4,497 nucleotides of DNA from a virus (taxonomy: Duplodnaviria > Heunggongvirae > Uroviricota > Caudoviricetes), in IMG/VR virus record IMGVR_UViG_2648501230_000017, one strand, 5' to 3'. A program made the translations under genes and the position numbers. Position 1 is the first letter of the stretch, and each line of letters opens with the position of its first letter. Below are positions 3,257 through 4,497 of the stretch, piece after piece. The notes below the pieces were generated by a model. The model saw only the letters and a program-made list of their open reading frames with translations. It was not told where the DNA came from and searched no databases.

Positions 3257-3393
3257 TATTCATTCTTCCAGATTTCTTCCGGCAGAGCCTTATACTGGAA
3301 TATACCTGGCTCAGTATATTGTTGAAAATATTATATGTTTGTCAAAAATAAAAGTTCTGTTAAGTATTGATTGAGTGTTTGTTATACGGTCTA

Positions 3394-3720
3394 ATGGTTT
3401 TTTCAGTATTAAATATTTATCATTCATATGGTGTGGGTAGAGTGAATATTGATGAGGCGTCGGGGTGTTTCATCCTTAGGCAGCGTATTGATATAGTCAA
3501 TGCAGCACGAGCAAAGGCCTTCAGCCGTTTGACAGTTTTGTTCTGTACTCCTGATCGTCTTTTGGGAAGAGACGTTATTATTCTGAATAGTGATGCTATA
3601 CAGAGGGTTTGCGATGAGTTCATGGTTGCTAATTCAGAATTATTTGCTCTTGTTCAGGAGTACAACAGAATAGCCAGGACCTGTGGTATGGATGAACTTC
3701 GGATTACTCATCTGGGGTAG
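3394..3720 (+). CDS. hypothetical cargo protein at the position occupied by stxAB in Stx phages; rare-codon-rich; start uncertain
   Basis: ORF open from 3367 (TTG) to TAG 3718-3720; first in-frame ATG at 3394, alternative GTG at 3433 and 3442. Of 11 Arg codons, 3 AGA, 3 AGG, 1 CGA, 1 CGG and 3 CGT; of 10 Ile codons, 3 ATA. No recognisable motif and no clear Shine-Dalgarno. The first ~60 nt are very AT-rich, so the real start may be internal. Confidence 0.5.
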   Translation: MVFSVLNIYHSYGVGRVNIDEASGCFILRQRIDIVNAARAKAFSRLTVLFCTPDRLLGRDVIILNSDAIQRVCDEFMVANSELFALVQEYNRIARTCGMDELRITHLG

Positions 3721-3800
3721 ATACATATCTGGATTATCACCTGTTACGGTAAAAAGTGATTGCTTACTGTTTTTGTGAATGGCATTGCAGCAGCCGGATA

Positions 3801-3887
3801 ATGTCAGTGCTGGCTGACGGTGTGCTGGTGGCGGGTGTGGTGGTTGTTGCTTTCCCGTTGCTGAAAAAGAAAACGCCAGACTGTTAG
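3801..3887 (+). CDS. candidate micro-ORF: 28-aa hydrophobic peptide (MSVLADGVLVAGVVVVAFPLLKKKTPDC), possible small membrane protein
   Basis: ATG 3801 to TAG 3885-3887. Single hydrophobic stretch followed by KKK, with E. coli-preferred codons (CTG, GTG, GCG). No clear SD. An in-frame GTG at 3756 would extend it to about 43 aa. Below the ORF-track threshold, found by manual translation. Confidence 0.2.
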   Translation: MSVLADGVLVAGVVVVAFPLLKKKTPDC

Positions 3888-4111
3888 CCGGGTATCAGTT
3901 AGCGGGAGAAATTTTTAAATACTTCACAATTCAGGCGGTTGACTGTTGTCTGGTTTGCGGGGAGTTTGTTAAAAGAAACTGGCATGGTGAATCCCCCTGT
4001 GCGGAGGGGCAATCAGCGAGTAGGTATATGGGATAATCGCGGATTCAGGTGCTGGTACTGAATTCACCGGGAGGCACCCGGCACCATGCAATGGCACATA
4101 GCGCCACTCTC

Positions 4112-4148
4112 CAGCCCCTCTCCGGAGGGGCTGTTTATATTGATTTTG
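4112..4148 (+). terminator. rho-independent terminator closing the cargo module
   Basis: 9-bp GC-rich stem (4112-4120 CAGCCCCTC pairing 4125-4133 GAGGGGCTG) with loop TCCG, followed by the T-rich tract TTTATATTGATTTTG. The opposite strand lacks a U-tract, so it is + strand specific. Confidence 0.6.
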
Positions 4149-4164
4149 TCAGATGTGAGTAAAC

Positions 4165-4198
4165 TCCTTATGGACTTTGTTGTTTTAGTCCATAAGGA
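4165..4198. repeat. perfect 12-bp inverted repeat with 10-nt spacer (TCCTTATGGACT-TTGTTGTTTT-AGTCCATAAGGA)
   Basis: Arms 4165-4176 and 4187-4198 are exact reverse complements. No adjacent U-tract on either strand, so it is not a classical terminator; could be a protein-binding palindrome or an RNA stem-loop. Confidence 0.7.
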
Positions 4199-4386
4199 CA
4201 TATTTGCAGAGTGCAACGGTTATTAAAGCATTCATTCAATACGTTATCTGTATTTGTAGGGCATTCCTGGCTGTTTTTGATTAAATTCCAGAATGTTTTA
4301 TTGAATGGTACTACGTTGTAAATGGTTACAGGTAGCACTTTGTTATTGAGCATGATGCCTGTGTGAGTCAGTGTAAATATACTTTC

Positions 4387-4441
4387 AGGAGGTAAGAAAG
4401 TGGATTTGCCCCTATATTTCCAGACACCTGTTATCACTTAA
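4387..4441 (+). promoter_or_regulatory. strong ribosome-binding site (AGGAGG) with GTG start and 13-codon mini-ORF; possible leader peptide or translational signal of a downstream gene
   Basis: AGGAGG at 4387-4392, 7-nt spacer, GTG at 4400, [16 protein letters not shown] ending TAA 4439-4441. Preceded by about 200 bp of AT-rich sequence with a TATACT -10-like hexamer at 4378-4383. Confidence 0.25.
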
Positions 4442-4497
4442 CCCATTACTGGCCTGCTGCCGCAGATATTCCCGTGGCGAGCGATAACCCAGTGCAC

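Follow-up and report, generated by a model that had tools for sequence, protein, structure and literature searches.

An iraL fragment, STnc100 and a small conserved reading frame behind the tRNA genes of a probable non-Stx lambdoid prophage

Features of the locus

The window analysed here is a stretch of 4,497 nucleotides from a viral genome record (IMGVR_UViG_2648501230_000017), and the segment of main interest lies behind its last tRNA gene, at positions 3257–4497. An original prediction had described this segment as unrecognised cargo of about 1.2 kb, taking the place of the toxin genes in a late region otherwise organized as in Shiga-toxin-converting phages. The following features were identified.

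775–1329, plus strand: candidate Q-like antiterminator gene of the DUF1133 family (Pfam DUF1133, 342 bits; Phage_antitermQ, 28.3 bits)
About 1417–1441, downstream of the Q-like gene: tR'-like hairpin with a T-run (CCCGC-UUUAU-GCGGG-U7 in the sequence; weak isrK-like Rfam alignment)
1908–2957, plus strand: N6/N4 DNA methyltransferase gene, as in the late leader region of Stx phages (Pfam N6_N4_Mtase, 150.8 bits; PADLOC MTase_II, 522 bits)
3007–3082, plus strand: tRNA with a CAU anticodon, ileZ-type (ARAGORN; Rfam tRNA, 72.5 bits; identical to ileZ of Stx2a_1447)
3090–3163, plus strand: decayed argN-like tRNA with the UCG anticodon loop kept (Rfam tRNA, 22.2 bits; gathering score 29)
3180–3256, plus strand: tRNA-Arg (UCU), argO-type (ARAGORN; Rfam, 70.1 bits; identical to argO of Stx2a_1447)
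3257–3441, no strand: AT-rich spacer (30% GC), holding two upstream in-frame starts of ORF92 (TTG 3367 and ATG 3394)
3442–3720, plus strand: ORF92, a conserved protein of 92 amino acids, phrog_2873 (function unknown); the open frame reaches upstream to 3367
3756–3887, plus strand: putative small membrane protein of 43 amino acids, DUF3927/TciB-like, recombined at its 5' end (Pfam DUF3927, PF13064, 95.6 bits against a gathering score of 25; phrog_1470 'TciB-like'; PGAP WP_000562553.1)
3953–4142, plus strand: STnc100 sRNA gene (RF02076; cmscan 132.4 bits against a gathering score of 47, E=4.9e-30, full model, positions 1–206)
4168–4400, minus strand: 3' part of iraL (codons 36–111 and stop), an RssB anti-adaptor gene of the IraM/IraL family (NCBIfam IraM, PRK09919, 97.8 bits, E=3.9e-28)
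4401–4497, minus strand: terminal 97 bp of an IS2-type element (IS3 family), with the inverted-repeat end and the last transposase codons, running off the window

The predicted upstream order of Q-like gene, tR' hairpin, methylase and tRNA genes was borne out. Positions 1426–3269, comprising tR', a 65-aa ORF, the methylase and ileZ/argN/argO, correspond to 4529–6363 of the Stx2a phage Stx2a_1447 at 88% identity, and the methylase gene is itself 88% identical in DNA to that of the Stx2a phage. The tR'-like hairpin is absent from the list produced by the automatic terminator scan. The expected Ile/Arg/Arg tRNA cluster is recognizable in its layout, but just two of the genes are intact (CAU and Arg-UCU). 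The argN-like element between them was not called by ARAGORN, and its Rfam score of 22.2 bits compares with 55.9 bits for the Stx2a phage gene; the alignment reveals a GG to AA change in the 3' acceptor strand, together with substitutions in the T-arm and T-loop. The CAU tRNA is labeled Met by ARAGORN, and Ile by PGAP and in the Stx-phage records.

Behind the tRNA genes the base composition drops as had been described, to a GC fraction of 0.242 over 3301–3420, against 0.497 over 1–3256. Promoter-like hexamers are no more frequent in the AT-rich spacer than chance allows (4, against 2.9 expected from shuffled sequences), and therefore no promoter of its own was recognized there. At E≤1, Rfam gave no match in the window to AgvB or AsxR, two anti-sRNAs known near stx.

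A different cassette at the stx position

No toxin family from Pfam or NCBIfam is matched in the window, and neither a plus-strand ORF of 315 amino acids nor a signal-peptide ORF of 89 amino acids follows the last tRNA. In the blastn comparison, homology with Stx2a phages stops at 3269, 13 nt past argO, and resumes ∼30 nt ahead of STnc100, with 3924–4398 being homologous at 68% to the DNA located 3' of stx2B. Between these breakpoints, 654 bp (3270–3923) replace the 1365-bp stx2AB segment of the Stx2a phage, to which they do not align. The reported absence of stx is thereby confirmed, and a different module does occupy the exact stx position, but this module is 654 bp long rather than ∼1.2 kb. 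These observations support a late region built as in Stx phages, in which another cassette fills the precise point where stx is found.

The cassette consists of ORF92, described further below, and of the micro-ORF that had been noticed at 3756–3887, for which Pfam identifies DUF3927. Compared to tciB of JLK-2012, this 43-aa ORF matches over residues 23–51 at 96.6%, with DNA homology beginning at 3788 (tblastn and blastn); it lacks the first transmembrane segment, and its first 11 residues are unrelated to TciB. A tblastn search identified no TerB (tciA) remnant in the window, which thus does not hold a full-length, two-segment TciB coupled to an upstream TerB. The pair formed by ORF92 and the truncated tciB may be a deletion derivative of a module of the order ORF92, tciA (TerB), tciB, which in related phages is found just upstream of the holin gene. 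A literature search on TciA, TciB and DUF3927 returned only unrelated Trypanosoma papers.

The cluster of hairpins and the terminator proposed in the original prediction are also present, and correspond to the sRNA STnc100, whose intrinsic terminator was located by the terminator scan (stem 4112–4133, then a T-run). They cannot be counted as a replacement for stx: a copy of the family is found 75 nt 3' of stx2B in Stx2a_1447, as reported for the start of STnc100 in Stx2 phage (PMC12370729), and others are found in JLK-2012 and in the locus L004. Since it lies just 3' of stx2B in Stx2 phages as well, STnc100 belongs to the backbone. In strain EDL933, copies of STnc100 have been detected by RNA-seq, and one by Northern blot.

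The nanS-p-type esterase and holin genes expected further downstream were found, followed by lysozyme, in the intact, IS-free version of the locus; for example, in strain CAU16175 it continues with a SASA esterase, the holin, YdfR and the lysozyme. In the window, they are hidden because of the IS element.

The iraL fragment and its disruption

The minus-strand iraL fragment at 4168–4400 and the IS end at 4401–4497 had been overlooked previously. The translated fragment equals residues 36–111 of WP_000871291.1, as found in CFT073 and in the matching locus L001, and the truncation of the gene explains why its IraM score of 97.8 bits stays under the cut-off of 121 bits. It also matches the IraM structure PDB 8TWD, with E=9e-32. 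I counted 66 identical residues out of 112 (58.9%) between CFT073 IraL and K-12 IraM, a value that was published together with the potB-island location of iraL (Hryckowian et al., 2014, PMC4045071). [quoted passage not shown]

Collinearity with IS-free genomes ends at 4400, and the remaining sequence is identical (97/97) to the end of many elements annotated as 'IS3-like element IS2 family transposase'. An IS2-type element has probably inserted after codon 35 of iraL, at a site where an insertion is seen in none of 5426 complete genomes; a rearrangement instead of a simple insertion is conceivable, as the other end of the IS lies outside the window. The 5'-RACE sequence published for iraL could be placed in CFT073, 33 nt ahead of the ATG. 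Both this transcription start site and the ATG are located beyond the IS, so that the window contains neither the promoter nor the complete iraL frame with its N-terminal beta-barrel core. The crystallized IraM construct spans residues 1–78 and contacts RssB through T13, C14, F18 and W30, all of whose equivalents are absent from the fragment. With its promoter, its start codon and the N-terminal third of its PmrD-like beta-barrel cut off from the remainder, this iraL copy appears to be dead, inactivated by the insertion. Read-through from the IS might conceivably yield an N-terminally truncated IraL, from a chimeric minus-strand ORF of 89 amino acids (GTG 4437 to stop 4168). Since iraL status influences log-phase RpoS levels, a strain carrying the disrupted allele is predicted to differ from other strains in its general stress response.

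Predicted expression of the segment

From their position, the plus-strand elements (ORF92, the truncated tciB and STnc100) would be part of the PR'/Q-antiterminated late transcript, in which case their transcription should rise on induction. The Stx2a phage has a different Q from the DUF1133 Q-like gene found here, and it is thus only the position of these elements that points to Q-dependent read-through. STnc100 would also accumulate in lysogens as a terminated sRNA, by analogy to what has been published for the EDL933 copies. An intact iraL would normally be expressed in the lysogen from its own sigma-70 promoter (ACATCACCAGCAAGG...), convergent to the plus-strand elements. The proposal that the whole payload is expressed on prophage induction is therefore plausible for the plus-strand elements, but does not extend to iraL, which acts in the growing lysogen.

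Identity and spread of the segment

Over positions 2968–4400, the window is 97.8% identical in DNA to the CFT073 potB prophage, where PGAP annotates the proteins WP_000562553.1 and WP_000871291.1, as it does in L001. In a comparison with 5426 complete E. coli genomes, positions 3257–4400 are 100% identical to at least 11 of these, and the IS-free version is found with at least 80% of the query in 862 of the 5426; overall, the locus occurs in 16–25% of complete E. coli genomes. Very probably, 3257–4497 belongs to a non-Stx lambdoid prophage like that of the CFT073 potB island and forms its accessory ('moron') segment: a mosaic that combines four known elements with an IS, flanked by the ileZ/argN/argO tRNA genes on one side and by the nanS-p esterase and lysis genes on the other. 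Little is then left of the view that the cargo is unrecognised: the interval matches a well-studied prophage, three of its four elements (STnc100, DUF3927/TciB and IraL) are catalogued, and the stretch is mostly already known, as the iraL/STnc100 region of a common lambda-like E. coli prophage, disrupted here by an IS. As a whole the locus is of little importance, the window adding just the IS knock-out of iraL to a common region described previously. The sole element of the interval that has no assigned function is the small conserved ORF92.

ORF92, a small conserved reading frame

ORF92 matches phrog_2873 with 191.5 bits (residues 1–92 against profile positions 17–108), but has no match in Pfam, NCBIfam or PADLOC. 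The ORF initially proposed at 3394–3720 does exist as an open frame (3367–3720), but its conserved coding core begins at GTG 3442, where family members of 91–95 amino acids also start, and not at ATG 3394. The start is ambiguous between TTG 3367, ATG 3394 and GTG 3442, the last of these being preceded by a weak Shine-Dalgarno sequence. An ungapped frame of 92 codons is kept in three alleles that share 71–75% nucleotide and 55–62% protein identity (dS about 1), and the other reading frames of the same alleles contain 4–13 stops. Among these alleles, dN/dS is 0.24–0.27, against about 1.0–1.2 in off-frame controls, and changes at third positions are in twofold excess. As judged from these substitutions, ORF92 is under purifying selection, with a dN/dS of about 0.25. 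More distant homologues, also of 91–95 amino acids and with 30–39% identity, possess good Shine-Dalgarno sequences.

A total of 1185 complete genomes carry the gene (about 22% of those from E. coli), CFT073 among them, as does just one of 50,697 phage records; when three distant homologues (P0024, P0026 and P0027) were scanned against viral contigs, nothing was returned. In CFT073 (NC_004431.1), the open frame lies at 1,342,664–1,343,017 on the plus strand, with the GTG at 1,342,739. It is unannotated in L001, CFT073 and mEp460_ev081, and also in the 39 full-length rows among 40 sampled RefSeq hits, covering both E. coli alleles. It will be missed by surveys of pangenomes or morons that build on RefSeq annotations, since no full-length RefSeq hit that was checked carries an annotation.

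The AF2 model of ORF92 consists of a helix, a beta-hairpin and a helix, with a mean pLDDT of 89.3. PDB sequences searched with a profile gave no match under E=0.9, and Foldseek searches of the PDB and BFVD returned only generic helical hairpins (prefoldin-beta-like, BAR and designed bundles), all at E>0.07. No functional claim is therefore based on the fold.

In further loci, the gene order is methyltransferase, ORF92, TerB, TciB, holin (L010), and tRNAs, ORF92, TerB, TciB, holin, endolysin (L011); in L004, ORF92 is found beside a YdeO-like AraC regulator, without TerB. It is tempting, although doubtful, to regard ORF92 as a real, selection-maintained family of the late operon, apparently omitted by RefSeq annotation, which in about 22% of complete E. 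coli genomes, CFT073 included, occupies exactly the site of Shiga toxin insertion. If true, this could be a new factor for host modulation, lysis timing or phage exclusion, maybe together with TerB/TciB or with prophage YdeO-like regulators.

Alternative interpretations

A tentative reading of these data makes ORF92 an active accessory gene of the phage, acting together with TerB (TciA) and TciB, and here the orphaned survivor of that module, with possible roles in stress tolerance, superinfection exclusion, abortive infection or the control of lysis timing just upstream of the holin. The purifying selection across three diverged alleles, the confident AF2 model, the location directly before TerB-TciB-holin in two independent, diverged contexts, and the 3' half of tciB kept right after ORF92 in the window are all consistent with such a role. 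However, ORF92 also occurs without TerB, both in the window and in L004, and JLK-2012 possesses tciA-tciB without ORF92; in addition, no defence-system model of PADLOC is matched, and the helical-hairpin fold has no significant structural neighbour.

It seems rather unlikely that the interval is decaying cryptic-prophage DNA devoid of current function, conserved through recent common descent. Signs of decay are certainly present, as argN is decayed, tciA is absent, tciB is truncated, iraL is cut by the IS, and the DUF968 gene is frameshifted in the identical prophage of L001. ORF92 is nearly absent from phage records, and most E. coli copies are 95–100% identical, and hence hold little selective information. 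This is opposed by the preserved frame of ORF92, with its low dN/dS across alleles whose dS is about 1, by the full covariance-model structure retained by STnc100, by the function of iraL demonstrated in CFT073, and by the complete lysis cassette that follows the intact locus.

The reading of the original prediction, in which the whole 1.2 kb is a novel payload that replaced stxAB and is switched on by prophage induction, is very improbable, and is already largely refuted by the CFT073 and L001 matches. While the cassette does lie at the exact stx position, ORF92 is without a match in the family databases, and the AT-rich upstream spacer is typical of horizontally acquired morons, most of the elements are catalogued and widespread in E. 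coli. STnc100 and an iraM/iraL-like gene are also found 3' of stx2B in the Stx2a phage, hence were not part of a replacement, and iraL is read from the other strand, under a promoter of its own. Finally, a chance open frame at 3367/3394–3720 in an AT-rich spacer would account for the lack of a PGAP or RAST call in L001, CFT073, mEp460_ev081 and the sampled RefSeq hits, and for the weak ribosome-binding site, but is already disfavoured, and scarcely credible given the ungapped selected frame in three alleles, the stops and near-neutral ratios in the other frames, and the existence of a PHROG family with homologues that have good Shine-Dalgarno sequences.

Comparison with known systems

The end of the window is that of IS2 (IS3 family), its last 97 bp being 100% identical to annotated IS2-family ends. 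The sRNA belongs to the STnc100/PasD prophage family (RF02076; Zhu, Shabalina & Storz, 2026, preprint), with which it shares a full-length covariance match, the terminal hairpin and U-run, and the location beside an esterase gene in late lambdoid prophage DNA under Q control; neither targets nor a function have been assigned to this family.

The scaffold resembles that of Stx2a phages (Stx2a_1447/WGPS2 type, with the 933W-like order ileZ-argN-argO-stx2AB) in the tR' region, the 65-aa ORF, the methylase and the three tRNAs, all within the 88% identity noted above, and in the downstream order of STnc100, an iraM/iraL-like minus-strand ORF, the nanS-p esterase and the holin. It differs in that stx2A and stx2B (1365 bp) are exchanged for ORF92 and the truncated tciB (654 bp), in its unrelated Q gene, and in a downstream backbone that is just 68% identical. 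The tciA-tciB moron of JLK-2012, encoding a TerB-domain protein and a DUF3927 peptide, occupies the same slot, in the order Q, tRNAs, cassette, STnc100, yjhS/nanS-p and S-R-Rz. It shares window positions 3788–4098 at 93%, including the 3' half of tciB, but here tciA and the first TM segment of tciB are absent and ORF92, which JLK-2012 lacks, is present.

The CFT073 iraL locus possesses the same order of tRNA-Ile/Arg/Arg, ORF92, DUF3927, STnc100 and iraL (minus strand), with identical IraL residues 36–111. In the window, by contrast, argN is decayed and iraL is cut after codon 35 by the IS2-type element. Further differences lie upstream in the Q/methylase region, where CFT073 has another antiterminator and an IS200; the nanS-p gene of CFT073 is itself a remnant.

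A late-regulatory scaffold shared with Stx2 phages

The DNA 5' of the interval at 3257–4497 is a lambdoid late-regulatory region, with the following features.

Features of the window, 5' of the interval and, in the last line, within it
71–412, DUF968/HNH tail
413–778, RusA
775–1329, DUF1133 protein, with a weak Phage_antitermQ match
~1417–1441, hairpin and U-run, seen in the sequence
between hairpin and methyltransferase, 65-aa ORF (phrog_331)
1908–2957, N6/N4 DNA methyltransferase
3007–3082, tRNA(CAU)
3090–3163, degenerate, argN-like tRNA element
3180–3256, tRNA-Arg(UCU)
3953–4142, STnc100 sRNA gene (RF02076, 132 bits, gathering score 47)

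Positions 1426–3269 are 88% identical to the Stx2a-converting phage Stx2a_1447, where the matching elements are annotated as a DNA methylase, ileZ, argN and argO, followed by stx2A and stx2B. This bears out the Stx-phage architecture of the original prediction, except for the middle tRNA. The ileZ and argO of the window are still identical to the Stx-phage copies, but the argN-like element is decayed: its score is 22 bits, whereas that of the Stx2a phage reaches 55.9 bits, and the acceptor stem and T-arm of the window copy have lost pairs (GG to AA in the acceptor 3' strand, altered T-loop). PGAP counts two tRNAs in the identical locus of strain CAU16175, and three in E. coli CFT073.

The short stretch from the Q-like gene to the tR'-type hairpin (1363–1441) matches isrK weakly in Rfam (21.6 bits, gathering score 50), and the terminal hairpin of this match is that at ~1417–1441. 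By position, this region corresponds to PR'-tR' leader RNAs, of which IsrK of Gifsy-1 and StxS of Sp5 function as sRNAs in their lambdoid prophages. In the CAU16175 locus, the DUF968 gene 5' of rusA (locus positions 2111–3155) is annotated as frameshifted, in a prophage otherwise 99.3% identical, a hint of at least partial defectiveness in prophages of this kind.

A small cassette at the stx position

In pairwise blastn against the Stx2a phage, homology stops at 3269, 13 nt past argO, and restarts at 3924, corresponding to Stx2a locus position 7729, 46 nt past the stx2B stop. The substituted piece is therefore 654 bp (3270–3923), versus 1365 bp in the toxin phage. Thus a different piece does sit at the stx site, but it is about half of the ~1.2 kb originally thought to replace stxAB, and 3924–4398 is common to the Stx2a phage, with 68% identity to the DNA between stx2B and the esterase gene. 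The IS-free locus continues with genes for a SASA-family (nanS-p-type) esterase, a class II holin, YdfR and lysozyme; the esterase and holin had been anticipated.

The hairpin cluster and terminator, taken for unrecognised cargo, proved to be STnc100. A member of the same family lies exactly 75 nt past stx2B in Stx2a_1447, as in other Stx2 phages (PMC12370729), and others are carried by phage JLK-2012 and by the Logan contig SRR29325574_484. RNA-seq detected all eleven copies of EDL933, of which one was also seen on a Northern blot (PMC5331693), and the family was lately linked to PasD (Zhu, Shabalina & Storz, 2026, preprint). At 3972–4097 (minus strand), the PGAP annotation of CAU16175 and CFT073 has a partial "hypothetical protein" pseudogene, wholly inside STnc100 on the opposite strand; it has no family match, and is probably spurious.

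The micro-ORF at 3756–3887 matches Pfam DUF3927 (95.6 bits) and phrog_1470, "TciB-like". Homology to the full-length TciB of JLK-2012 is limited to its last 32 residues, and DNA homology to tciB begins at 3788; compared to that phage, the window lacks the first transmembrane segment of TciB and the upstream TerB-domain gene tciA. I refer to this truncated gene as tciB'.

ORF92 is a gene under purifying selection

The open frame 3367–3720 includes the ORF originally placed at ATG 3394, but its diverged homologues (91–95 aa) all start at the position of GTG 3442 (MNID...), two of them with a good Shine-Dalgarno there. The resulting 92-aa ORF (3442–3720), hereafter ORF92, was compared between the window, the Logan contig and a MAG contig (JAEWMQ010000075.1). 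The three alleles align without gaps over 92 codons, at 55–62% protein identity, with a dN/dS of 0.24–0.27 and about twice as many third-position changes as at first or second positions, while the two other frames contain 4–13 stops and give ratios of 1.0–1.2. The homologue starts, gapless frame, dN/dS and off-frame controls together establish ORF92 as a real gene.

ORF92 belongs to a small family (20 representatives among 1.8 billion proteins) and matches phrog_2873, of unknown function, with no match in Pfam, NCBIfam or PADLOC. Its AlphaFold2 model is confident (pLDDT 89), consisting of a helix, a beta-hairpin and a helix, with no significant structural neighbours in the PDB or BFVD. It is found in 1185 of 5426 complete E. 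coli genomes, and among GenBank phage records solely in mEp460_ev081, where RAST does not call it. Annotation at the site is absent from all 39 full-length matches in a spread sample of 40 RefSeq hits, and from CAU16175 and CFT073 (NC_004431.1, 1,342,739–1,343,017).

A second allele, 55% identical and typified by the Logan contig, occurs in 89 complete genomes, and is unannotated in the ten best of these. There, the order is methylase, a 241-aa YdeO/GadX-like AraC-family regulator (contig positions 164–889), the ORF92 homologue directly behind it, and STnc100; this allele of the slot has no tRNA genes. The partnership of ORF92 is therefore not fixed. Genes for TerB (TciA), TciB and holin come immediately after ORF92 in two diverged relatives, and the window arrangement accordingly looks derived from a three-gene module by deletion or recombination. 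The 2.7-kb MAG contig, labeled "MAG: Bacillota bacterium", is lambdoid-phage DNA 81% identical to the window methylase, with ORF92, TerB, TciB and holin; its label probably stems from faulty binning.

Several sites carry interchangeable cassettes, and the stx position is among them; the occupants seen there are stx2AB, ORF92-tciB', YdeO-like regulator plus ORF92, tciA-tciB, and ORF92-tciA-tciB. ORF92, tciB' and STnc100 are oriented with the late transcript, and Q-modified polymerase would transcribe them upon induction. It is conceivable, if rather unlikely, that this selection-maintained late-operon family encodes a host-modulating, lysis-timing or phage-exclusion factor.

A minus-strand iraL is interrupted by an insertion sequence

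The original prediction overlooked a minus-strand gene; in identical DNA of other strains, PGAP names it "anti-adapter protein IraM". The same protein (WP_000871291.1) is encoded in CFT073, in a prophage adjoining potC/potD, behind tRNA-Ile/Arg/Arg and the same DUF3927 protein. It is 58.9% identical (66/112) to K-12 IraM, the very figure reported for IraL, located on the potB island, and the published 5'-RACE sequence maps 33 nt 5' of its ATG (Hryckowian et al., PMC4045071). Identity, location and transcript start identify the gene as iraL. [quoted passage not shown] In the IraM-RssB crystal structure, the functional PmrD-like beta-barrel consists of residues 1–78, and the contacts to RssB are made by T13, C14, F18 and W30.

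In the window, iraL is physically disrupted. Only codons 36–111 are present, collinearity with all IS-free genomes ends at 4401, and the last 97 bp are identical to termini of elements whose annotation is that of IS2-family IS3 transposase genes; this junction occurs in none of the 5426 complete genomes. Lacking promoter, start codon and residues 1–35, the truncated gene is presumably non-functional, and late read-through from Q-modified polymerase would run antisense to it. An 89-aa chimeric ORF (4168–4437, minus strand), from a GTG inside the IS end into iraL codons 36–111, could in principle yield a truncated IraL via IS read-through; its length equals that of StxB by chance.

Two ORF92 homologues of the Logan-contig type (P0018 and P0023) run at their 3' end into the same IS2-type terminus, at two different codons. 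Counting that in iraL, there are at least three independent IS2-type insertions in this ~1-kb slot.

Stx2a_1447 itself has an intact 107-aa IraM/IraL-like ORF, unannotated in its record, between STnc100 and the esterase gene (locus positions 7981–8304, minus strand; AP012536.1 ~18906–19229). This ORF shares 73% identity with IraL and 65% with K-12 IraM, and may be a third RssB anti-adaptor paralogue, borne by toxin phages.

Relationship to known prophage loci

At least 11 complete genomes contain positions 3257–4400 with 100% identity, and 862 of 5426 cover at least 80% of this query; the iraL part alone is found in 1360. While the structural observation behind the original prediction was largely right, its description of unrecognised cargo was mostly wrong, and the interval matches an annotated prophage in which function is already assigned, for iraL; ORF92 is the sole unexplained component. 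The interval is a member of the known and widespread CFT073-type iraL/STnc100 prophage region, and has its scaffold in common with Stx2 phages.
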